Part shown: positions 10,310-21,292 of the stretch, one piece after another | Layout: every line of letters begins with the position of its first letter | Position numbering within the stretch: position 1 is the stretch's first letter | UHGV virus genome: UHGV-0273766 | DNA from: a virus | Strand: one strand, 5' to 3' | Length of the DNA: 21,292 nucleotides | Notes under the pieces: generated by a model | The model's input: the letters and a program-made list of their open reading frames with translations, nothing else | The model's database searches: none | What the model was told of the DNA's origin: nothing | Position numbers and translations under genes: made by a program

Positions 10310-10921
10310 TCAAAGAGAAAAGCTAAAGCCCAGAAGGGAAGCCAAAGAACTTGAGGATTGGTTAAACGTGCTGTGCAATGCGAAGGTCATTGGGAATGAC
10401 TTAAATTCAGTAACCTGATCTCGCGCATAGGTGACATCGCCGGTAGTGACCGGGAATACCGTCATCTCATTTTCCAGTTTGGTTAAGCCGGAAGACAGCA
10501 ACCGATAAATACGCACATTGAGCAAATATTTAGACGGTATATTCCCGGTACCGTCCGGATTGATTACCCGACTTTTTGCCGTCTTAAACCAGTCCAAAAC
10601 GAGGCCATCAACGGTATCCCTGACCATCATTGTTATCTGCCCTGGCGAACGCTCCGTTGGTTGAAGGATATTCCCTCCGCCGATTTTAATCGTTTCATAT
10701 TCGATGCTGTAATCGTGGTAGGTAATATCTTTGGCAAAGAAGTCTGCCCCCTCCAGTCCATCAACTTCGACAGAGAACTGCCATCCTTGCGCGAACAGCA
10801 TTTTGTTCATGATGATTGACGTCAGCTTACCAACTTCCCGTTCACCAACGCCGGAGCCAAATAATGTCGTCGTTAATGCCGAAGATACATAAGACTTTAC
10901 TGAAGCAACATTAAACCCCAT
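10310..10921 (-). CDS. Hypothetical protein (203 aa), probable tail morphogenesis or structural protein
   Basis: Complete ORF with GAGAGG-type Shine-Dalgarno; tightly packed in the minus-strand operon. Confidence 0.55.
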   Translation of the reverse strand: MGFNVASVKSYVSSALTTTLFGSGVGEREVGKLTSIIMNKMLFAQGWQFSVEVDGLEGADFFAKDITYHDYSIEYETIKIGGGNILQPTERSPGQITMMVRDTVDGLVLDWFKTAKSRVINPDGTGNIPSKYLLNVRIYRLLSSGLTKLENEMTVFPVTTGDVTYARDQVTEFKSFPMTFALHSTFNQSSSSLASLLGFSFSL

Positions 10922-10931
10922 ATCAGCCCTC

Positions 10932-11522
<591 letters not shown>

Positions 11523-11556
11523 TTAACCGATTCTACGAGTAGTCATTTGTGACAGG

Positions 11557-12033
11557 TCATTTTGCGCGCTTCAGGCAGCCATCTTCAGGTGCCGCGTTGA
11601 AAAGCTCTGCGGCCTTACGTAGCGTAAATGTTGCGATTTTTTTTCCGTCTACGTATGCATCGAATGTTTTAACTTCCATATCAGGGGTATCTGACCAAAA
11701 ACCATACCAGTAACTATCACCCACAGAGGAACCGATAGAACTGATAGGATATTCATCATCACCAACTTTCAGCGTTATTTGTTCTTTTTTAGCATCAAAT
11801 GACTCACCGCCAGGTTCTGTTTTCATGAGAGTGAGTAGTCGTGTTCCTACTTGATTGGGATCCGTATTATTAAATCCAACATCGCACTCAAATGTAAGCG
11901 TATAATTATCTTTGCTGGAAACAGCATAAGAACGAACACCATGAGTCTCGCCGGTTGACCATTTGCTTACATTTGCCATTGATGAAAATGGAGTAAGCAA
12001 AGCAAGAATTAGAAAAAATCGTTTGATGCGCAT
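11557..12033 (-). CDS. Secreted or periplasmic small protein (158 aa) with N-terminal signal peptide; AT-rich gene
   Basis: N-terminus MRIKRFFLILALLTPFSSMA is a classical Sec signal peptide; gene and flanking intergenic regions look AT-rich by eye (not computed); two Cys in the mature part. Confidence 0.6.
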   Translation of the reverse strand: MRIKRFFLILALLTPFSSMANVSKWSTGETHGVRSYAVSSKDNYTLTFECDVGFNNTDPNQVGTRLLTLMKTEPGGESFDAKKEQITLKVGDDEYPISSIGSSVGDSYWYGFWSDTPDMEVKTFDAYVDGKKIATFTLRKAAELFNAAPEDGCLKRAK

Positions 12034-12094
12034 TAATTTATCTCCTTTGGATATTAACGATTATCAATATTTTAATTGGTTATCCATAATATAT

Positions 12095-12742
12095 TTACCA
12101 TTCATAGGGTAAATTAAGCGCTTTTAAACCTTGCTGGAAGGTATTAAGTGAACCGTTCTTTTGTTGTTCCATTTGTTCGCGTGCCGCTTTCTCATACTGC
12201 TCCATCCGTTGGTTATACTCTTGCAATTCCTCTGGTGAGAGGTTTCCCATTGGGGAGTTTGTACCCGGCCCCCTGGCCCGCTCTTCAAGTGTACCCTGCA
12301 CGTTTTGATGGCGCATTCCTGGGGCATTTCTGATTGAGTCAATGCCATTTCTTCCAACGTCTTCTTTATTAACGGCATTGCTCGCCACCAGCACACCCCA
12401 GCTAGGAATAGCAAAATCAGGAGCGGTTTCGCATGCCTTTACCATATAATCGAAAGTGCTTCGATTGATCTCATTTGCATCGGGGTTTAATAGGCGAGAA
12501 TATTGGTATTTAGCATTTGCGTTGGTTGAGACTTTATACAGTTCCTGCTGCACCATCGCTTCAGAAAGTTTAAGGCGCTTCATATCTGACAGTAACTTCT
12601 TGCGCATGGATTCGTCTTCACTGACAGCAAATCCGTAAACGTGCCCAAGGTATTTCGTATAATCGGTACAAATCTCCTTTACGCTTGATGCTGCATTAAC
12701 AGTCCCAGCCATAAATAATAACGGTAGTAATAGTTTTCTCAT
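12095..12742 (-). CDS. Secreted protein (215 aa from the second ATG), candidate superinfection-exclusion (P1 Sim-like) protein
   Basis: Signal peptide MRKLLLPLLFMAGTVNA with GGTGAGG Shine-Dalgarno upstream of the internal ATG (the ORF track starts 9 codons earlier at 12769). C-terminal segment NAPGMRHQNVQGTLEERARGPGT is shared with the Sit-like protein. Confidence 0.6.
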   Translation of the reverse strand: MRKLLLPLLFMAGTVNAASSVKEICTDYTKYLGHVYGFAVSEDESMRKKLLSDMKRLKLSEAMVQQELYKVSTNANAKYQYSRLLNPDANEINRSTFDYMVKACETAPDFAIPSWGVLVASNAVNKEDVGRNGIDSIRNAPGMRHQNVQGTLEERARGPGTNSPMGNLSPEELQEYNQRMEQYEKAAREQMEQQKNGSLNTFQQGLKALNLPYEW

Positions 12743-12838
12743 TATAACCTCACCTGCCTTATAACTCATTTAGGGTACATATTTTCGCCTTTAAAAAAAA
12801 GAGGTTATTAGATCCAATTGTGCATTTATTAAACAAAC

Positions 12839-12855
12839 AATGCTCTAATAAATTT
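12839..12855 (+). promoter_or_regulatory. P1-type C1 repressor operator (Op51-like)
   Basis: AATGCTCTAATAAATTT matches 16 of 17 positions of the P1 C1 operator consensus ATTGCTCTAATAAATTT (recalled from the literature). Confidence 0.6.
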
Positions 12856-13019
12856 GTATTTTTAAGTCACGAATGCTATCTTTTCGCATCATATTGACCT
12901 TTTAATCGTTCAGGCTTATAGTTCCGCCGTCGTAGCAAATTCTGCGACCGGGTTTAGCAGCCTGAATGTTAGTGCGGACAACCGCAGATATCCGATATTG
13001 CGGTATTTTTGTGTCCGTA

Positions 13020-13110
13020 AAACCGCGTTACGCCCAAATTATGGTGGGGCGTGATGGGGAGGCTTCGGCCTGCTGGTTTCACTAACGCCAGTCTGCTAAC
13101 CCCGTCACGT
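13020..13110 (+). ncRNA. Putative c4-like antisense repressor RNA region (boundaries approximate)
   Basis: Between the operator and the icd-like ORF. Elements CACTAAC (13080-13086) and CTGCTAA (13093-13099) are complementary to GTTAGTG (13152-13158, overlapping the Shine-Dalgarno of the icd-like ORF) and TTAGCAG (13123-13129). Contains a GGC-TTCG-GCC hairpin. Confidence 0.35.
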
Positions 13111-13169
13111 CCTGCCACCTGTTTAGCAGCGGGTAGCAGGTTGTTAAACCTGTTAGTGAGGCCGTAACT

Positions 13170-13391
13170 ATGGTTAATGCCAATCCTTGCGCACGCCAAG
13201 AATTCATCTGGCGTTTCTATTCCTGTAAAAAACACCACTATCACTTCGTTATCGCAGCAACAGAAGACGAAGCACGCTCTCAATTGCCTGATGGCCCCTG
13301 CATTTTTACTGCCCGTTTTTCAACTAACTCGCGCAATTCACTTAGTTACTGGAGCCTCCCCTTCTCTGCCGACGTTCAGGGGGGTTTATGA
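13170..13391 (+). CDS. icd: Icd-like small protein (73 aa), translationally coupled to the antirepressor
   Basis: GAGG about 8 nt upstream of the ATG; its stop overlaps the antirepressor ATG (ATGA). Size and position match P1 icd as I recall it. Confidence 0.45.
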   Translation: MVNANPCARQEFIWRFYSCKKHHYHFVIAATEDEARSQLPDGPCIFTARFSTNSRNSLSYWSLPFSADVQGGL

Positions 13392-14422
13392 AAACACCTC
13401 TCGTCACCCGTAATGAAATAGCCGAAGCGATCGCCTTGCATACAATCTGTATGCCGACACGGGAGATCCCCGGCGCAATTGCCAACTATTTCATGATAAC
13501 CAGGCGTTTTTATACCCGAACAGATAAGGCTGTGATCAACAGGCTACTGATAGCCGAGATCAGGGATTATTTGATTGAACAAGGACGTCTACGTTACGCA
13601 ACAGTGGCAGCAGAAATGAGAAAGGAGGCACATAGAATGACCGGTAATAATTTAAATGTTGAAAAACCAGCACCTGTTGCTTCAGCTACGCCAGCACCAG
13701 CCCTGAATGTCATCCCCAACACCGGAGACACAATCGACAGCCAAACATTGTTGAAGATGGTCAATGAGGCACGGAAATTATGTAGCGAAAAACCAGTTCG
13801 CAACAATGATTTCATTGCCAGAGTTAAGGATGAGCTTGAAGGAGAAACCTACGAAATTTTCGTAGGTCAAAAAAACGGCGCAGAAATAGATATTATAACC
13901 ATGACCTACAAACAAGCCCTGCGAGTTGCCGCGCGCGAGTCAAAAGCGGTCCGCCGTTCGCTGATCGACAAACTGGAAGAATTACAGCAGGCAAACTCCC
14001 CTACCCCATCGATCCCCCAAACATTACCAGAAGCCCTACGCCTGGCTGCCGAGTTGGCAGAACAGAAAATGCATCTGGAACAACAGCTGGTGGCCGCAGC
14101 ACCTAAAGTCGATTTTGCCGACCGGGTATCAGTGGCTAATGGAATCCTGATCGGTAACTTTGCAAAGGTCGTTGGACTTAAGCAAAACGCCCTTTTCTCA
14201 TGGTTGCGCCAGAACGGCATTCTCATGGCTTTTGGTGCGCGCAAAAACGTACCGCGCCAGCAGTACATTAACGCCGGGTATTTCACGGTGAAAGAAGTGG
14301 TGCTGGATGATGAAAATGGCTATCAGATACGGCTGACGCCACAATTAACGGGTAAAGGCCAGCAGTGGTTAACTCGCAAGCTACTTGATGCTGGTTTGTT
14401 AAAACCAGTAGCAATAGGTTAA
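13388..14422 (+). CDS. ant: Phage antirepressor with C-terminal KilAC/ANT domain (344 aa)
   Basis: C-terminal LPEALRLAAELAEQK...APKVDFADRV...ILIGNFAKVVG...QQYINAGYFTVKE...TGKGQQWLTRKLLDAG matches the KilA-C/ANT family by eye; G-rich Shine-Dalgarno; followed by a terminator. Confidence 0.75.
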   Translation: MKTPLVTRNEIAEAIALHTICMPTREIPGAIANYFMITRRFYTRTDKAVINRLLIAEIRDYLIEQGRLRYATVAAEMRKEAHRMTGNNLNVEKPAPVASATPAPALNVIPNTGDTIDSQTLLKMVNEARKLCSEKPVRNNDFIARVKDELEGETYEIFVGQKNGAEIDIITMTYKQALRVAARESKAVRRSLIDKLEELQQANSPTPSIPQTLPEALRLAAELAEQKMHLEQQLVAAAPKVDFADRVSVANGILIGNFAKVVGLKQNALFSWLRQNGILMAFGARKNVPRQQYINAGYFTVKEVVLDDENGYQIRLTPQLTGKGQQWLTRKLLDAGLLKPVAIG

Positions 14423-14435
14423 CAAAAGAAAAAAA

Positions 14436-14460
14436 CCTGCCAGCAAACTGGCAGGTTTCT
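14436..14460 (+). terminator. Rho-independent terminator after the antirepressor gene
   Basis: Stem CCTGCCAG / CTGGCAGG (8 bp), loop CAAA, then TTTCT. Confidence 0.7.
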
Positions 14461-14500
14461 GAGCAGATCGTCCAACCCGATCTGGATCGGGTCAGAAAAA

Positions 14501-14517
14501 TTTGCTCTAATAAATTT
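14501..14517 (+). promoter_or_regulatory. P1-type C1 repressor operator (Op53-like) upstream of the kilA-repL-like operon
   Basis: TTTGCTCTAATAAATTT matches 16 of 17 positions of ATTGCTCTAATAAATTT. Flanked by inverted repeats at 14476-14491 (CCCGATC-TG-GATCGGG) and 14536-14559 (AATCACCA-N8-TGGTGATT). Confidence 0.6.
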
Positions 14518-14586
14518 CGTTTTCTAAGTGCAAAGAATCACCATTTCGAGCTGGTGATTGAAGGTTGATGCAAATTTGGAGAAAAA

Positions 14587-15387
14587 ATGCAACAAACATT
14601 CAATGCGGATATGAATATATCAAACCTTCATCAAAATGTCGATCCTTCAACCACTCTGCCCGTTATTTGTGGTGTTGAAATTACGACCGACCGCGCTGGC
14701 CGTTACAACCTTAATGCTCTACACAGAGCGAGCGGACTCGGTGCCCATAAAGCGCCAGCTCAATGGCTAAGAACGCTGTCAGCCAAACAGCTCATCGAAG
14801 AGCTTGAAAAAGAAACTATGCAGAATTGCATAGTTTCGTTCGAAGGCCGTGGCGGCGGCACTTTTGCCCATGAATTGCTCGCAGTGGAGTACGCAGGCTG
14901 GATTTCTCCCGCGTTTCGGCTGAAGGTAAACCAGACATTTATCGACTATCGAGCCGGAAGATTACAACCTGCTATTCCGAAGAGCCTCCCAGAAGCTCTC
15001 CGTTTGGCTGCTGACCTGGCAGAGCAAAAGCAACGGCTGGAGCAAAAAATGCTGATGGATGCACCTAAAGTCGAATTCGCCGAACGCGTTGCTACCGCCA
15101 GCGGGGTTCTAATCGGCAACTATGCCAAAGTGCTCGGCTTGGGCCAAAACTATCTCTTCACCTGGTTGCGTGATAACGGAATTCTGATCGCAACCGGTGA
15201 ACGCAGGAACGTCCCCAAACAAGAATACATATCCCGTGGGTATTTCACCCTTAAAGAAACCGTGATCGATACAAGCAATGGAAGCAGGATTTCTTTCACG
15301 ACTCGTATAACCGGCAAAGGTCAGCAGTGGCTGATGAAGCGATTGCTTGATGCTGGTGTGCTGGTACCTGTCGCGGCAACGCGCTAA
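14587..15387 (+). CDS. kilA: KilA-N plus KilAC domain protein (266 aa), KilA/antirepressor-like
   Basis: N-terminal KilA-N-like signature (NLNALHRASGLG...GTFAHELLAVEYAGWISPAF); C-terminal half is paralogous to the C-terminus of the upstream antirepressor. Confidence 0.7.
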   Translation: MQQTFNADMNISNLHQNVDPSTTLPVICGVEITTDRAGRYNLNALHRASGLGAHKAPAQWLRTLSAKQLIEELEKETMQNCIVSFEGRGGGTFAHELLAVEYAGWISPAFRLKVNQTFIDYRAGRLQPAIPKSLPEALRLAADLAEQKQRLEQKMLMDAPKVEFAERVATASGVLIGNYAKVLGLGQNYLFTWLRDNGILIATGERRNVPKQEYISRGYFTLKETVIDTSNGSRISFTTRITGKGQQWLMKRLLDAGVLVPVAATR

Positions 15388-15416
15388 CAGACGTAGTAAG
15401 AACCACCAGCATTGTA

Positions 15417-16262
15417 ATGCTGGCTAAAGTCACTTTCCTGAGCTGTATAACGATGAGCGATTTTACTTTTTCTGGCTATGAATTGGCCTTCTTTGTAACA
15501 CACTCCGGTCTATCCCGTAGCGCCGGGCATATCCTGTCGCAATGTGCAAATCTCGCGGCAACAACCAGTGAATACTTCATTCACAAGCCCCACCGCCTGA
15601 TCGCGGCAGAAACTGGTTATAGCCAATCAACCGTCGTTCGTGCATTCCGTGAAGCTGTAAACAAAGGAATTCTATCTGTAGAGATTGTTATCGGCGATCA
15701 CCGTGAACGTCGCGCTAACCTGTACCGGTTTACACCATCCTTTTTGGCCTTCGCACAACAAGCCAAAAATGCGCTGATTGAAAGCAAATTAAAAATCTCT
15801 TCAGCGGCAACCAAGGTTAAAGCTGTTCTCGCTAAGACATTGGCTTTATTTAATTTTTTATCCACACCCCCATGTCAAAATGATACCCCCTCCCCATGTC
15901 AGGATGACGTGGCAATAAAGAATAAGAAGTCACAAGTTAAAAAAACAAAAAGATCAGTTTCCGGCGGTGCCGGAACGATCAGACTCAAAAAATTGACTTC
16001 ATGGATCGCTGAGACAAAAGCAAAGGCTGACAATCTGCGGTTATCCAAAAAACGCGCACAAAAACATGAGTTCAAGCAGAAAGTAGAGGCGGCAGCGCGG
16101 AAATATGCTTACCTGAAGAACAAGCGTTCTCCTGATATTGGCGGGGTATCAAACTTCGATAATCTGCCGCATTGCATGACGGTAAACGAAGCTCTTAATG
16201 CGGTTTTAGCCAAAAATAAAGATAACGAACAATGGGGTATACCGGCAGGATTCAGAGGGTGA
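15417..16262 (+). CDS. repL: RepL-like lytic replication protein candidate (281 aa) with N-terminal HTH-like segment
   Basis: Follows the kilA-like gene as in the P1 kilA-repL operon; HTH-like segment (LIAAETGYSQSTVVRAFREAVNKGIL); Lys-rich C-terminal half; matches my recollection of RepL size. Start codon uncertain (alternative ATG at 15453). Confidence 0.45.
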   Translation: MLAKVTFLSCITMSDFTFSGYELAFFVTHSGLSRSAGHILSQCANLAATTSEYFIHKPHRLIAAETGYSQSTVVRAFREAVNKGILSVEIVIGDHRERRANLYRFTPSFLAFAQQAKNALIESKLKISSAATKVKAVLAKTLALFNFLSTPPCQNDTPSPCQDDVAIKNKKSQVKKTKRSVSGGAGTIRLKKLTSWIAETKAKADNLRLSKKRAQKHEFKQKVEAAARKYAYLKNKRSPDIGGVSNFDNLPHCMTVNEALNAVLAKNKDNEQWGIPAGFRG

Positions 16263-16312
16263 TAGATTGCTCTAATCTGGAGTTACCTGGCGTTTTCAGT
16301 TTGAGGTCGGAG

Positions 16313-16558
16313 ATGCAATCTGATTTTTTACAGTTAGCGATCGCTTTTGCAGGATATGTTTGTATTGGCTTCTGTGTATACATGATCAGCCGAAAAATGC
16401 TTGTCGATATCGACCGCAAAGAACAAGCAGAGGAGATCTTAGTATGGATTTTCTTTGGCGCGGTCTGGCCATTAGGGATCATGTTTGCTGCAACATTTCT
16501 TCTGATGTGGATATTCACCCTTCCAGGTGATTTCTATAGAAAAAAAGCCAGACATTGA
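16313..16558 (+). CDS. Small membrane protein, two predicted transmembrane helices (81 aa from ATG 16313; the ORF track extends to 16232)
   Basis: Hydrophobic stretches LAIAFAGYVCIGFCVYMI and ILVWIFFGAVWPLGIMFAATFLLMWIF; GGAG just upstream of the ATG. Confidence 0.45.
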   Translation: MQSDFLQLAIAFAGYVCIGFCVYMISRKMLVDIDRKEQAEEILVWIFFGAVWPLGIMFAATFLLMWIFTLPGDFYRKKARH

Positions 16559-16738
16559 TACAATCGTTGCGGGTGCTTGAGGCTATCTGCTTCAGGTATT
16601 ACCCGAAAAGCAGATAGAAGAAAGCCCCAGATAACATTACGCGTCCTGCAAGACGCTTAACATTAATCTGAGGCTCAATCTATGAACGGCAAATCTAGGT
16701 TAGCCTCTTACGTGCCGAAAGGCAAGGAGAAGCAGGCT

Positions 16739-16894
16739 ATGAAGCAGCAAAAGGCGATGTTAATCGCCCTGATCGTCATCTGTTTAACCGTCATAGTGAC
16801 GGCACTGGTAACGAGGAAAGACCTCTGCGAGTTACGAATCCGAACCGGCCAGACGGAGGTCGCTGTCTTCACAGTTTACGAACCTGAGGAGTAA
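16739..16894 (+). CDS. hok: Hok/Gef family type I toxin (51 aa), HokD/RelF-like
   Basis: MKQQKAMLIALIVICLTVIVTALVTRKDLCELRIRTGQTEVAVFTVYEPEE is a canonical Hok/Gef sequence; AAGGAGA Shine-Dalgarno; in-frame upstream extension from 16682 (Mok-like leader); GC-rich hairpin at 16903-16924 downstream. Confidence 0.85.
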   Translation: MKQQKAMLIALIVICLTVIVTALVTRKDLCELRIRTGQTEVAVFTVYEPEE

Positions 16895-16932
16895 GAGACC
16901 CGGCGAGGGAGAAATCCCTCGCCACCTCTGAT

Positions 16933-17340
16933 GTGTCAGGCATCCTCAACGCACCCGCACGTAACCCGCTTCGGCGGGTTTTGTTTTTTCCTGGCATTCT
17001 GGTTTACAATTCGCACGCCAGCCTGAACAACTGGCACCTGCTGCGCCAGCAGAGACAACCGATGGCGCACGATACCAAATTACACAATTCTGATGATTCT
17101 GCCGTCTTTGCCAGCAGGCACGGGCGGCGTTCCCGCACTTTCAAATCTGACTGGTTCCAGCATCCCCCATGCACTGAAGAACAGGCCGAGTGGCTAATTC
17201 AGTGCTACCGCAGACACGGATACGAGATTAAGAAAGCCCTCAGCCTCGATTATCGTCACTGGATAATCTCCGTCAGGCTTCCTTACTCCGAACGATCACC
17301 GCGTCCGTCCCGCACATTCCAGCAACGCATCTGGAGGTAA
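16933..17340 (+). CDS. Hypothetical protein (up to 135 aa; start uncertain, possibly the internal ATG at 17062)
   Basis: ORF between hok and the DUF968 gene, in the position occupied by rem in the Qin prophage; no recognisable motif. Confidence 0.35.
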   Translation: MSGILNAPARNPLRRVLFFPGILVYNSHASLNNWHLLRQQRQPMAHDTKLHNSDDSAVFASRHGRRSRTFKSDWFQHPPCTEEQAEWLIQCYRRHGYEIKKALSLDYRHWIISVRLPYSERSPRPSRTFQQRIWR

Positions 17341-17341
17341 C

Positions 17342-18388
17342 GTGCGAGTATTACTTCGACCTGTTCTGGTACCGGAACTCGGGCTGGTGATCGTTAAGCC
17401 GGGCCGTGAATCCATGCCGGTATTCCACAATACCCGGGTACTGGTGGAGCCGGAACCGAAAAGCATGCGTAATCTGCCGTCCGGGGGCGTTCCTGCCGTT
17501 CGCCAGCCGCTGGTGGAAGACAAAACATTGCTGCCGTTTTTCAGTAACGCACGGGTGATTCGTGCTGCTGGTGGTGCTGGTGCATTGTCTGACTGGCTGT
17601 TGCGCCATATTAAATCCTGCCAGTGGCCACACGGCGATTATCATCACAGCGAAACCGTCATTCACCGTTATGGTACCGGCGCAATGGTGTTGTGCTGGCA
17701 CTGCGACAACCAGTTGCGTGACCAGACCTCCGAATCACTTGAGCAACTTGCTCACCAAAACTTGTCAGCATGGATGATTGACGTCATTCGTCACGCAATG
17801 AATGGCACACAGGAGCGGGAATTATCGCTGGCTGAATTATCTTGGTGGGCAACCATAAATAACGTAGCGGACGCACTACCGGAGACGGTATTACGTCGTT
17901 CGCTGGGATTGCGCGCGGAAAAAATTAGCTCAGTATACCGCGAGAGCGACATCGTGCCGGGAGAGCAGAGTGCCACCAGCATGCTGAAGCAGCGCACAAA
18001 AAATATTGCGCCGCTGCTTCACGCCCACCAGCAAAACCCGCCACAGGAAAAGACGGTGGTCAGCATTGCCGTTGAGCCGGAGTCTCCGGAATCTTTCATG
18101 AAACGACCTAAACGTCGCCGCTGGCTTAACGAGAAATACACGCGCTGGGTTAAGACACAGCCGTGTGCATGTTGTGGAAAGCCTGCTGATGATCCCCACC
18201 ACTTGATAGGCCACGGTCAGGGTGGAATGGGTACTAAAGCGCATGACCTCTTTGTGTTGCCTTTGTGCAGAAAACATCACGACGAGCTGCATGCGGATAC
18301 CGTGGCATTTGAAGAGAAGTATGGCTCCCAGCTGGAGCTGATATTTCGTTTTATCGATCGTGCGCTGGCAATAGGCGTGCTGGCCTGA
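17342..18388 (+). CDS. DUF968-family protein (YdfU-like) with C-terminal Cys/His HNH-like motif (348 aa; GTG start, uncertain)
   Basis: C-terminal CACCGK...DDPHHL...GGMGTKAHDLFVLPLCRKHHDELH is characteristic of DUF968 proteins found in lambdoid nin regions; order hok, small ORF, DUF968, Q mirrors the Qin prophage. Confidence 0.7.
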   Translation: MRVLLRPVLVPELGLVIVKPGRESMPVFHNTRVLVEPEPKSMRNLPSGGVPAVRQPLVEDKTLLPFFSNARVIRAAGGAGALSDWLLRHIKSCQWPHGDYHHSETVIHRYGTGAMVLCWHCDNQLRDQTSESLEQLAHQNLSAWMIDVIRHAMNGTQERELSLAELSWWATINNVADALPETVLRRSLGLRAEKISSVYRESDIVPGEQSATSMLKQRTKNIAPLLHAHQQNPPQEKTVVSIAVEPESPESFMKRPKRRRWLNEKYTRWVKTQPCACCGKPADDPHHLIGHGQGGMGTKAHDLFVLPLCRKHHDELHADTVAFEEKYGSQLELIFRFIDRALAIGVLA

Positions 18389-18405
18389 TTTTGTGGAGAA
18401 AGTTG

Positions 18406-18777
18406 ATGCGTGATATTCAAATGGTTCTTGAACGTTGGGGGGCATGGGTGGCAAATAATCACGAGGATGTGGAATGGTCATCTGTTGCTGCAGGTTTTAA
18501 GGGATTAATTCCTTCGAAAGTAAAATCCCGCCCGCAATGTAGCGATGACGATGGCCTGATCATTAGCTCTGCGATGACAGTTCTTAAGAAAAAGGAACCG
18601 TATCAATACGAATTACTGGAAATGTATTATGTGTATGGGGTTACATTACGGGTGTTGGGGGTAAAACTGGGGATATCACTTAATCAGGTTGTTATCAGAC
18701 TGCAGAAAGCTGAAGGGTTTATTGACGGTTGTCTGGCAATGTTGGGGGTATCTTTAGAAATTGATTGTTACATATAG
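18406..18777 (+). CDS. Antitermination protein Q-like (phage 82-type Q family, 123 aa)
   Basis: N-terminus MRDIQMVLERWGAWVANNHEDVEWSS matches my recollection of short Q proteins annotated in E. coli prophages; GGAG about 7 nt upstream; followed by an AT-rich intergenic region as expected for a late promoter and qut site. Confidence 0.65.
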   Translation: MRDIQMVLERWGAWVANNHEDVEWSSVAAGFKGLIPSKVKSRPQCSDDDGLIISSAMTVLKKKEPYQYELLEMYYVYGVTLRVLGVKLGISLNQVVIRLQKAEGFIDGCLAMLGVSLEIDCYI

Positions 18778-18852
18778 TAATAAATTCAATCAAAGTAAAT
18801 AATCATATTTTATTATAACCTCCTGATGATACCTGTTCATTGGGAGGTTATT

Positions 18853-19470
18853 ATGGATAAAAATGTAGAGCATGTATTAGTTGATGCAATTGAAAATAAG
18901 CAATCTTTAACAGTCGTTTACTTAGGAGGGAGCCAGCCCGGAACATTAAGGAATATTTCTCCGATTAGTATAAATGGGGATAAATTGCGGGCAAGATGCC
19001 ATAGTTCTGGAGCAGTAAAGGTTTTCAATCTTGGGAAAATACAGTTACCCAGTGACTCCTGCGCGGTATCTATGCACTATGGAGATTTAGAAGTTAAAGC
19101 TTATGAGACGATGCAGAGCGTAAATGACAACTTTCATGCCCTTTATCCTGAAGGACGATGGGGTGTTGATTTTAATGAGCATCGCTTTGCTTTATTTGAT
19201 TTTTTTAAAAACGGGAAACGAAAAAAAACGGCATTTATGGCAATTGAGTTCAGGGAAAGAGATGAAGAGAAAATAATAACAGGTGTAACAATTGATATTG
19301 GTATATCTGGAACAGTGATTTCTGAGAAGTCCCGAATCCCAAAAAGACGACCATGGGTAGTGGTTGGTCCCGAACACGGAGAATACAGTACTTATTCAAC
19401 TTTGGACAAGGCTGCTACAGCGTTTTTTGAGAGGCTTTCGTTGATAGCATCCGGCCTGGAAGATAATTGA
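18853..19470 (+). CDS. Hypothetical protein (205 aa), AT-rich moron immediately downstream of Q; possible WYL-like N-terminal domain
   Basis: GGGAGG Shine-Dalgarno 5 nt before the ATG; AT-rich by eye; N-terminal pattern VVYLGG...R.ISPISI....LRARCH.....KVFNLGKI resembles WYL/Sm-like folds; followed by a rho-independent terminator. Confidence 0.6.
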   Translation: MDKNVEHVLVDAIENKQSLTVVYLGGSQPGTLRNISPISINGDKLRARCHSSGAVKVFNLGKIQLPSDSCAVSMHYGDLEVKAYETMQSVNDNFHALYPEGRWGVDFNEHRFALFDFFKNGKRKKTAFMAIEFRERDEEKIITGVTIDIGISGTVISEKSRIPKRRPWVVVGPEHGEYSTYSTLDKAATAFFERLSLIASGLEDN

Positions 19471-19600
19471 TTTTATGTTTGGTATTCAGAGTTCGCCGTG
19501 CTTAAGAAAGTCAAGATTCTAAAAATACTGAATGAGCTACTTGTGTTATAACAAAAATGCTATTAGTGTGTTAAGAGTGGTTACTTCGCCACACAACTTA

Positions 19601-19626
19601 AACCCGCCACTGAGCGGGTTTTTTGT
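19601..19626 (+). terminator. Rho-independent terminator downstream of the moron
   Basis: Stem AACCCGC / GCGGGTT (7 bp), loop CACTGA, followed by a T-run. Confidence 0.75.
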
Positions 19627-19746
19627 ACCTGTAAACTTGGTGCAGTACAGTAAACACGCTGGTGGTCGTGAATACTGACTTTTTATCTTGCTGGCTTTTT
19701 AGACAAGAGTTATTGGTATGTCATGTTAACCAGAAGGGAAAAAGAC

Positions 19747-19944
19747 ATGCTAAAACAGCAAGATATGACCGAAACCGCCAGAGTGGTGTTTAATGAATTG
19801 AGCGTCACCGAACCGGCGACAGTCGGGGAGATTGCGCAGAATACTTACCTTTCACGCGAACGCTGCCAGTTAATACTGACCCAGCTGGTTATGGCGGGTC
19901 TGGCAGACTATCAGTTCGGTTGTTACAGACGCCTTCCGCAGTGA
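19747..19944 (+). CDS. Small hypothetical protein (65 aa), possible winged-helix DNA-binding protein
   Basis: AAGGGA about 9 nt upstream of the second ATG; TVGEIAQNTYLSRERCQLILTQLVMAGLA resembles a recognition helix / wing; a terminator hairpin overlaps its stop codon. Confidence 0.4.
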   Translation: MLKQQDMTETARVVFNELSVTEPATVGEIAQNTYLSRERCQLILTQLVMAGLADYQFGCYRRLPQ

Positions 19945-19957
19945 AGGCTTTTTTATT
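19931..19957 (+). terminator. Rho-independent terminator overlapping the stop of the small ORF
   Basis: Stem GCCTTC / GAAGGC, loop CGCAGT, followed by TTTTTTATTT. Confidence 0.65.
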
Positions 19958-20094
19958 TGTGGTAAATGGGCGGCTGGTGGGTGTTAGGGGCACCCACCAG
20001 CCATCTGCTCATGCGTTGGGTTCACAAGCAAACCTCAGGCCCACTGCTTTGCGCAAAAGCAGAATGAGCCTATCAGAGACAGGCTTAATGATCC

Positions 20095-21144
20095 ATGCTT
20101 AATACTGTAAAAATATCCAGTTGTGAGTTAATCAACGCCGACTGCCTGGAATTTATCCGGTCGTTACCCGAAAATTCTGTTGACCTGATAGTCACGGACC
20201 CGCCGTACTTTAAAGTGAAGCCTGAGGGCTGGGATAACCAGTGGAAGGGCGACGATGATTACCTGAAGTGGCTGGACCAGTGTCTGGCGCAGTTCTGGCG
20301 GGTGCTGAAACCTGCCGGAAGTCTTTACCTGTTCTGTGGTCATCGCCTGGCATCTGATATCGAAATCATGATGCGTGAACGCTTCAGTGTGCTGAACCAT
20401 ATTATCTGGGCGAAGCCGTCCGGACGCTGGAACGGATGCAACAAGGAAAGCCTGCGGGCGTATTTCCCCGCCACAGAGCGCATTCTGTTCGCGGAACATT
20501 ATCAGGGGCCGTATCGTCCGAAAGATGCCGGGTATGCGGCGAAGGGCAGTGCACTGAAACAGCATGTGATGGCCCCGCTGATTTCTTACTTTCGTGATGC
20601 GCGCGCGGCCCTGGGGATAACGGCAAAACAGATTGCAGATGCCACAGGAAAGAAAAACATGGTGTCGCACTGGTTCAGTGCCAGTCAGTGGCAGCTACCG
20701 AACGAAAGCGATTATCTGAAATTACAGTCGCTGTTTGCCCGGGTGGCAGAAGAGAAACATCAGCGCGGTGAACTGGAAAAGCCCCACCACCAGCTGGTGG
20801 ATACGTATACGTCACTGAACCGGCAGTATGTGGAGCTGCAGAGTGAATATAAGCATCTGCGGCGGTATTTTGGTGTGACGGCGCAGGTGCCGTACACGGA
20901 TGTGTGGACACATAAACCGGTGCAGTTCTATCCCGGGAAACATCCGTGCGAAAAACCGGCAGAAATGCTGCAGCAGATAATCAGCGCAAGCAGTCGTCCG
21001 GGTGACCTGGTTGCAGATTTTTTTATGGGCTCAGGTTCAACGGTAAAAGCGGCACTGGCGCTCGGGCGTCGTGCGATTGGCGTTGAGCTGGAGACCGGAC
21101 GTTTTGAGCAGACAGTCAGGGAAGTTCAGGATTTAATCGTTTGA
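20095..21144 (+). CDS. Orphan DNA methyltransferase, beta-class amino-methyltransferase (N6-adenine or N4-cytosine), 349 aa
   Basis: Motif IV TDPPY near the N-terminus and motif I FFMGSGST near the C-terminus (beta-class order); no restriction endonuclease gene adjacent. Confidence 0.85.
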   Translation: MLNTVKISSCELINADCLEFIRSLPENSVDLIVTDPPYFKVKPEGWDNQWKGDDDYLKWLDQCLAQFWRVLKPAGSLYLFCGHRLASDIEIMMRERFSVLNHIIWAKPSGRWNGCNKESLRAYFPATERILFAEHYQGPYRPKDAGYAAKGSALKQHVMAPLISYFRDARAALGITAKQIADATGKKNMVSHWFSASQWQLPNESDYLKLQSLFARVAEEKHQRGELEKPHHQLVDTYTSLNRQYVELQSEYKHLRRYFGVTAQVPYTDVWTHKPVQFYPGKHPCEKPAEMLQQIISASSRPGDLVADFFMGSGSTVKAALALGRRAIGVELETGRFEQTVREVQDLIV

Positions 21145-21193
21145 AACGGATGAGATTGCAGAATTAATTACGCACCATTATTATTCTGCTCCC

Positions 21194-21269
21194 GGCCCTT
21201 TAGCTCAGTGGTGAGAGCGAGCGACTCATAATCGCCAGGTCGCTGGTTCAAATCCAGCAAGGGCCACCA
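21194..21269 (+). tRNA. tRNA with anticodon CAT, tRNA-Ile2-like (lysidine type) or tRNA-Met; CCA encoded
   Basis: 7-bp acceptor stem GGCCCTT/AAGGGCC, D-arm AGCTCAGTGG, anticodon loop CTCATAA, T-arm GGTTCAAATCC, discriminator A plus CCA. Closely resembles E. coli ileX/ileY-type tRNA from memory. Confidence 0.85.
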
Positions 21270-21292
21270 TCACATACCGCCATTAGCTCATC

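Follow-up and report, generated by a model that had tools for sequence, protein, structure and literature searches.

The 21,292-nucleotide stretch of viral DNA analysed here, UHGV virus genome UHGV-0273766 (hereafter the window), carries the immI operon of phage P1 followed directly by the P1 lytic replicon, set in the backbone of a P1-like phage-plasmid, and a probability of about 95% is given to this identification. An earlier note, made from the letters alone, had proposed a P1-like secondary immunity and lytic replicon module; the proposal is borne out by 96% DNA identity and by the mapping of every annotated P1 regulatory element, and the coordinates that it gave for operators, open reading frames, a partial operator match and palindromes are all correct. 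Alignment of window positions 12603-16276 with P1 (NC_005856, 47904-51585) gives 96.1% DNA identity over 3688 columns, and transfer of the P1 GenBank annotation through pairwise alignment places Op51/Oc4, Op53/OrepL, P51a, P51b, P53, the P53as hexamers, the predicted PrepL hexamers and three Dam sites on the window, all of them letter-identical to P1. In a megablast comparison with phage genomes, P1, P7 and P1-like phages show 95-98% identity across 91-100% of positions 12700-16400, and the window proteins are 90-99% identical to their P1 and P7 counterparts, the similarity to P1 Ant, KilA and RepL being overwhelming. The closest relative found is the E. coli 1303 plasmid p1303_95 (NZ_CP009168.1), with 98.3% DNA identity across window positions 9063-16956 and with an exact match for all five proteins (Icd, Ant1, KilA and RepL each 100% identical). 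The combination of immI and lytic replication module is not new, and public databases contain near-identical copies of it; what is added beyond a re-identification of P1 is modest, namely a hybrid C4 specificity and a combinatorial pattern of alleles. For annotation, the window is marked as a P1-like phage-plasmid, and c4, the operators and P53as are placed where automatic annotation stays blank. The genes of the module are as follows.

13170-13391, plus strand: icd, a 73-amino-acid cell-division inhibitor; 70 of 73 residues as in P1 Icd; NCBIfam phage_ICD_like, 52 bits
13388-14422, plus strand: ant1, 344 amino acids, putative C1 antirepressor; 314 of 347 residues as in P1 (90%); Pfam ANT/KilAC, 106 bits; PHROG 63 'anti-repressor Ant'
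14587-15387, plus strand: kilA, 266 amino acids; Pfam KilA-N, 75 bits, and ANT (ANT/KilAC), 112 bits; 264 of 266 residues as in P1
15417-16262, plus strand: repL, 281 amino acids, lytic replication initiator; 274 of 281 residues and 827 of 846 nucleotides as in P1; PHROG 2418, 521 bits

The coupling of an icd-like open reading frame to an antirepressor gene, as had been suggested, is seen in the ATGA overlap of icd and ant1 at 13388-13391, and the start of ant2 (ATG at 13637, with AGGAGG before it) is nested in the ant1 frame. Judged by homology, Ant1 and Ant2 would be antirepressors of C1; a patch around residues 133-170 of Ant1 diverges from P1. The KilA-N gene and the RepL-like gene that had been placed behind a second operator are kilA and repL.

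Three sites in the window carry the core of the C1 operator, and two of these are complete.

12839-12855, plus strand: Op51 (Oc4), C1 operator, AATGCTCTAATAAATTT; identical to P1 48140-48156, annotated as 'monovalent C1-controlled operator Oc4'
14501-14517, plus strand: Op53 (OrepL), C1 operator, TTTGCTCTAATAAATTT; identical to P1 49810-49826
16266-16282, plus strand: site at the Op55/Orlf position, ATTGCTCTAAT followed by CTGGAG; 11-nucleotide operator core kept, right part unlike P1

Two 17-mers had been reported to match the C1 operator consensus, ATTGCTCTAATAAATTT (PMC8546580), at 16 of 17 positions. Both matches hold, and the two sites prove to be, letter for letter, Op51 and Op53 of P1. 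Op51 overlaps the -35 hexamer of the promoter P51a and Op53 covers the -10 hexamer of the promoter P53 (14506-14511), and at up to three mismatches these are the sole matches to the consensus in the window. A matrix built from eight annotated P1 operators scores Op51 at 23.1 bits and Op53 at 21.8 bits; the third-ranked site across the 21 kb reaches 10.9, and the scan of the 21-kb window yields no other high-scoring C1 operator. The positions conserved among the eight extracted P1 operators are A.TGC.CTAAT plus T15, and the core TGCTCTAAT is present exactly three times in the window. The third copy is the partial match ATTGCTCTAAT noticed earlier at 16266-16276 by the 3' end of the repL-like gene; it is exact and lies at the position of P1 Op55/Orlf, where P1 has ATTGCTCTAATTATAAC, agreeing with the consensus at 12 of 17 positions, and the window has ATTGCTCTAATCTGGAG, agreeing at 11 of 17. 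The window 17-mer at this position falls outside the 12 best matrix sites, of which the lowest listed scores 8.7 bits, and its core A.TGC.CTAAT is intact. This window form is the majority form, found in 37 of 40 P1-like loci from IMG/VR (the P1 form in 3 of 40), and in the loci that have it ATTGCTCTAAT is followed by a conserved linker of 23 nucleotides (CTGGAGTYACCTGGCGTTTTCAG) and then by variable cargo.

The edges of the homology fall within the operators themselves. To the right, homology with P1 and P7 stops exactly after the 11-nucleotide core at 16276, inside Op55, and to the left homology of the P7 type begins at 12841, inside Op51, so that a conserved block of 3.4 kb spans from operator core to operator core. 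Eight variable regions are known in P1-like plasmids, and the conserved block sits between two of them, sim and rlf (PMC9603915). Operator cores may serve as module junctions. The likeness of Op51 and Op53 exceeds the 17-mers, with positions 12841-12867 and 14503-14529 agreeing at 85% over 27 nucleotides (TGCTCTAATAAATTTGTATTTTTAAGT and TGCTCTAATAAATTTCGTTTTCTAAGT), and this extended similarity suggests that the operator modules have arisen by duplication.

The non-coding stretch of about 300 nucleotides that had been remarked on behind the first operator and before icd is the c4 RNA gene together with two sets of its target sites.

12853-12882, plus strand: P51a (P2c4), C1-repressible promoter of the immI operon; -35 TTTGTAT and -10 TATCTT identical to P1
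12894-12922, plus strand: P51b (P1c4), operator-free promoter, expected to supply c4 RNA in the lysogen; TTGACC-17-TATAGT identical to P1
12954-12960, plus strand: a1, TTAGCAG (P7 type), upstream target, mapped from the P1 annotation
12968-12975, plus strand: b1, GTTAGTGC (P1 type), upstream target, mapped from the P1 annotation
13043-13119, plus strand: c4 antisense RNA, 77 nucleotides; Rfam C4; 74 of 77 bases as in P1 c4
13080-13086, plus strand: b', CACTAAC, in the 9-nucleotide hairpin loop of the C4 fold
13093-13099, plus strand: a', CTGCTAA, the 7-nucleotide single-stranded joint of the C4 fold
13123-13129, plus strand: a2, TTAGCAG, downstream target
13152-13159, plus strand: b2, GTTAGTGA, downstream target

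The Rfam family C4 (RF01695) matches positions 13037-13122 at 70 bits against a gathering score of 45, and the family c4-a1b1 matches 12916-12968 at 55.5 bits against a gathering score of 46.7. P51b was recovered independently by a promoter consensus scan, with 10 of 12 matches. The C4 RNA folds with an energy of -44.9 kcal/mol and a z-score of -5.6, leaving b' and a' unpaired, and these two segments show perfect 7+7 complementarity to both target sets on the same strand, of which the downstream b2 runs into the Shine-Dalgarno sequence of icd, GAGG. A duplex of 6 bp can also form between the P7-type a' and another UAGCAG located 11 nucleotides downstream of a2; this site is not conserved and its pairing is treated as incidental.

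Alignment with P1 and P7 indicates that the C4 specificity of the window is a hybrid: a', a1 and a2 are of the P7 type, and b', b1 and b2 (GTTAGTG) are of the P1 type. The background polymorphisms of the c4 region are P7-like except in short patches at b1 (with a single-nucleotide polymorphism about 12 nucleotides away), b' and b2. Given that the order of the sites in the DNA is a1 b1 ... b' a' ... a2 b2, a single crossover between P1 and P7 cannot give the pattern of the window. The c4 loci of IMG/VR were gathered by two pattern scans and 147 occurrences were typed, a set that includes P1, P7, the window and p1303_95. These loci hold two a-alleles and at least seven b-alleles (GATTGTG, GTTAGTG, ACTTACG, ACGAATG, GTACATG, ACTTGTG and GTTCAAG) in at least 12 combinations, of which these are the most frequent.

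a-P7 with GATTGTG: 35 loci, P7 type
a-P7 with ACTTACG: 21 loci
a-P1 with GTTAGTG: 17 loci, P1 type
a-P7 with GTTAGTG: 15 loci, window type, about 10% of loci
a-P1 with GTACATG: 13 loci
a-P1 with GATTGTG: 12 loci
a-P7 with ACGAATG: 11 loci

Whichever the combination, a1 and a2 are the same and are the reverse complement of a', and b1 and b2 are the same and are the reverse complement of b', in all typed loci except one. In that locus (L028, 4687-4918, minus strand) b' (CATTCGT) agrees with b1, yet b2 is the P1-type GTTAGTG; its C4 would make a poor duplex at the ribosome-binding site of icd, and the locus could be a chimeric contig or else a recombinant in which ant is derepressed. In a covariation alignment of 38 distinct c4-region sequences, 99.8% of cells are paired between a'/b' and a2/b2, and 100% between a'/b' and a1/b1. 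Changes on both sides are found in 8 of the 14 pairs, none of 500 shuffles matches the observed covariation score, and sliding the partners by 1-3 columns lowers the pairing to 26-52%. This near-perfect three-way covariation strongly supports a two-seed antisense mechanism and specificity sites that are shuffled in nature. The exact 226-nucleotide region of the window recurs at 99% identity or more in 34 of the 575 PLSDB plasmids that have a match, and the window c4 type was found in none of 24 records of deposited phage genomes, in which the best match is of the P7 type at 96.9%.

The regulatory sites of the lytic replicon lie between ant and kilA and extend into the start of the latter.

14483-14511, plus strand: P53 (PkilA), lytic replicon promoter; -35 TGGATC and -10 TCTAAT identical to P1
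14614-14642, minus strand: P53as antisense promoter; hexamers identical to the P1 PaskilA annotation
about 14606 down to about 14422, minus strand: P53as transcript of about 180 nucleotides, start mapped from P1 49915
14431-14460: G+C-rich hairpin between ant and the P53 region, with a T run after it on the minus strand; terminator scan, 13 pairs
14476-14491, minus strand: first palindrome, CCCGATC-TG-GATCGGG; holds two of the three Dam GATC sites and lies over the P53 -35 hexamer
14536-14559: second palindrome, AATCACCA, an 8-nucleotide loop and TGGTGATT, with 8-bp arms; in the kilA leader and in P53as RNA

The Dam sites (GATC) at 14466, 14479 and 14485 are all as in P1. The antisense promoter P53as is also found by the promoter scan, as TCGACA-17-TATATT with an upstream TG and 10 of 12 matches, and the hairpin at 14431-14460 is likely to be the terminator of its RNA. 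The distance from a start at 14606 to this minus-strand terminator at 14460-14431 corresponds to an RNA of about 180 nucleotides, and the size that Heinrich et al. reportedly gave for P53as RNA in 1995 agrees with this. The minus-strand fold of 14606-14422 has a z-score of -5.4 and consists of three hairpins, which are the second palindrome, the first palindrome in extended form and the terminator. That palindromes at 14476-14491 and 14536-14559 flank the second operator had already been noticed, and both are real. Among 29 distinct relatives, variants at 14490, 14492, 14493 and 14494 keep the pairing on the minus strand, as G-U or A-U, and give C-A or A-C mismatches on the plus strand; the pair 14490/14477, for example, is C-G in 6 and U-G in 23 on the minus strand, against C-G in 6 and C-A in 23 on the plus strand. 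This strand-specific G-U pairing (14471-14496) favours a hairpin of the antisense RNA over a symmetric DNA site, and the first palindrome as a symmetric protein site at the DNA level was rejected, given that its outer pairs are broken on the plus strand in most relatives. The second palindrome is nearly invariant (identical in 49 of 55 loci), and the covariation comparison is thus silent for or against its structure. On the modelled fold, hairpins formed by the P53as antisense RNA are the best reading of both palindromes.

The operation of the circuit is carried over from P1 through near-identity of the elements, following the logic of immI as summarised in PMC8198154 and PMC8546580, and C1 binding, Ant action, C4 processing and origin firing would proceed here as they do there. 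What is observed in this DNA is the identity of the elements to P1, the membership of C4 in its RNA family, the fold that exposes a' and b', and the covariation of these with both target sets. In a lysogen, C1 encoded elsewhere on the element would bind Op51 and shut P51a. The operator-free P51b would still transcribe the leader, from which RNase P (PMC11143913), together with other processing, would free the 77-nucleotide C4. Its loop b' and joint a' would then pair with b2 and a2, around the ribosome-binding site of icd, the translation of icd would be blocked and the translationally coupled ant1 and ant2 would stay off, with the upstream a1 and b1 presenting a second copy of the targets. 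Should C4 be insufficient or mismatched, as when a heteroimmune relative superinfects, Ant1 and Ant2 would be made and C1 inactivated. At the lytic replicon, C1 on Op53 would cover the -10 hexamer of P53 and block the transcription of kilA and repL, and once C1 is lifted RepL would fire the origin oriL inside repL; the constitutive P53as would provide an antisense RNA of about 180 nucleotides that damps P53. The P1 annotation places oriL inside repL, and its placement in the window, made through homology, is putative. A tandem repeat of 16 nucleotides (CCCCATGTCAAAATGA and CCCCATGTCAGGATGA, 24 nucleotides apart, 15868-15907) lies inside repL where P1 has oriL and could be an element of the origin.

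The allele pattern raises the possibility that immI of P1-like phage-plasmids acts as a form of barcode, composed of two 7-nucleotide antisense seeds, each present in triplicate (C4, upstream target, downstream target), with at least 12 natural classes compared to the textbook two of P1 and P7. The a(P7)/b(P1) class of the window would then represent a type of immunity not yet characterised, which three short patches had created within a P7-like background; unannotated plasmids are the only place where it is seen, and no deposited phage genome has it. This proposal is tentative and rather doubtful as it stands. No account of how diverse the c4 alleles of P1-like plasmids are was found in the searchable literature, including PMC6906374, PMC9603915 and a 2025 bioRxiv survey; papers that cannot be searched may contain one and the diversity is not claimed to be unreported. 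A serious contender, if itself somewhat short of an even chance, is that b alone sets specificity, in which case the hybrid C4 would be no separate immunity type and the element would be homoimmune with P1 at immI. The b site has at least seven alleles and the a site only two, and the b' of the window pairs with the b2 of P1 at full strength: against the P1 target the window C4 makes the full b match at -11.7 kcal/mol, and against the P7 target it makes the full a match at -8.5 kcal/mol with a weak b pairing of -4.9 kcal/mol. Furthermore, in a check of elements with more than one module, comprising eight pairs or sets (seven of them each within one IMG/VR contig, the eighth being the pair L046 and L120, whose two contigs share a source), the two or three c4 modules of each set (e.g. 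L010/L053/L074 and L012/L127/L139) always differ in b and share a in three sets, a hint that b is the main specificity determinant. However, a', a1 and a2 covary without exception in the 38 distinct sequences, which implies that the a pairing is also selected, and the pairing of P1 a' weakens from -8.3 to -4.1 kcal/mol on a window-type target. The allele survey suggests that heteroimmunity among the hundreds of P1-like plasmids of Enterobacteriaceae, many of which carry resistance genes, is set by a small readable antisense code, which could predict which elements coexist with, or induce, one another.

The identification of the module as P1 immI and lytic replicon has itself to be set against two other explanations. 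Given the AT-richness of the region, which is the sole reason to consider it, the 17-mers might be chance matches unrelated to C1. This is so improbable as to be negligible: shuffled windows give an expectation of 0.11 matches and 0 of 100 shuffles give two, and the sites reproduce, letter for letter, P1 operators that were named on experimental grounds, with a placement among promoters and genes that is also that of P1, which together rule out a chance origin. It is also possible, though improbable, that the module is an inert passenger of a defective or chimeric element, or of a mis-assembled contig without C1, so that its operators and c4 form no working circuit. P1-like similarity extends to 16956, and similarity to lambdoid prophages and Stx-type phages runs from 16559 to 21292, a part that holds hok/sok, DUF968, antiterminator Q, a DNA methylase and tRNA-Met(CAT). 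In a three-way comparison the window agrees fully with the P1-like version as far as about 16650, and beyond about 16660 it agrees fully with the lambdoid version, and this switch (about 16640-16660) falls inside a hok/sok stretch of about 400 bp that is common to both partners. No record joining both sides of the switch was found among the phage, plasmid and complete E. coli genome collections, and tblastn with P1 C1 finds no c1 in the 21-kb window. Nevertheless, the module has all its open reading frames and regulatory elements intact, with sequences that equal or nearly equal those of functional P1, and the 16.9 kb to the left form a normal P1-like backbone. The earlier note had looked to a C1 homologue elsewhere in the replicon; within the window there is none, and p1303_95 has a match of 283 amino acids at 99.6% identity, annotated as 'phage repressor protein C1'. 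On this match in the relative and on the protein similarity to P1, the refutation that the note had allowed for fails. Given that c1 lies about 42 kb from repL in P1, its absence from 21 kb is expected. Three points do weigh against the reading of the module as a P1 circuit at work in this element: none of c1, coi and lxc is found inside the 21-kb window, which bears on the repression of this particular replicon; the switch reflects a genuine P1-lambdoid recombinant or else a chimera of assembly, and what remains of the P1 genome lies outside the window; and the mechanistic detail that goes beyond the GenBank annotation and the two reviews is general knowledge. Neither a recombinant nor a chimera affects the identification of 12839-16282 as P1 immI and lytic replicon.

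Compared with immI of P1 (NC_005856, 48140-49731), the window has the same operator, both promoters, gene order, ATGA coupling, internal ant2 start and C4 fold and the same b', b1 and b2 sequences, but its a1 and a2 are the P7-type TTAGCAG rather than the TTGACAG of P1, with a' likewise of the P7 type, its Ant1 is 3 amino acids shorter with a divergent patch, and two other open reading frames replace the sim operon to the left of Op51. With immI of P7 (NC_050152, 50853-52448) it shares a', a1, a2 and most background polymorphisms of the c4 region; it differs in having b sites of the P1-type GTTAGTG where P7 has GATTGTG, and left-hand homology is absent before 12841, a position within Op51. All regulatory elements are identical to those of the P1 lytic replicon (Op53-P53-kilA-repL/oriL and P53as), and the difference lies to the right of repL, where P1 has Op55-rlfA-rlfB and the window has the 11-nucleotide operator core, an 81-amino-acid open reading frame of membrane type and hok/sok. 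The a(P7)/b(P1) c4 type is shared with p1303_95, which has c1, and with about 34 other PLSDB plasmids; beyond hok/sok, p1303_95 enters P1 tail genes whereas the window enters the lambdoid Q region. A functional parallel is found in immI of phage P22, which is likewise a secondary immunity in which a small RNA (sar) restrains an antirepressor (ant) of the main repressor. The P22 sar is transcribed from the strand opposite its target, whereas C4 and its target come from one transcript, out of which C4 is cut, and C4 pairs by means of two short seed sites; we know of no sequence relation between the two systems.

To the left of Op51, at 11557-12769 on the minus strand, the superimmunity operon simABC is replaced by two open reading frames of unknown function, one of 224 amino acids (PHROG 3933) and one of 158 amino acids (PHROG 3429), and only the first 159 nucleotides, homologous to simA, are kept, at 150 of 159 identities; sim belongs to the variable regions known from P1-like plasmids (PMC9603915). 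To the right, at 16313-16558 on the plus strand and in place of P1 rlfA/rlfB, an open reading frame of 81 amino acids (PHROG 3772) lies between the Op55-like site and hok/sok, and its hydrophobic sequence suggests a small membrane protein.

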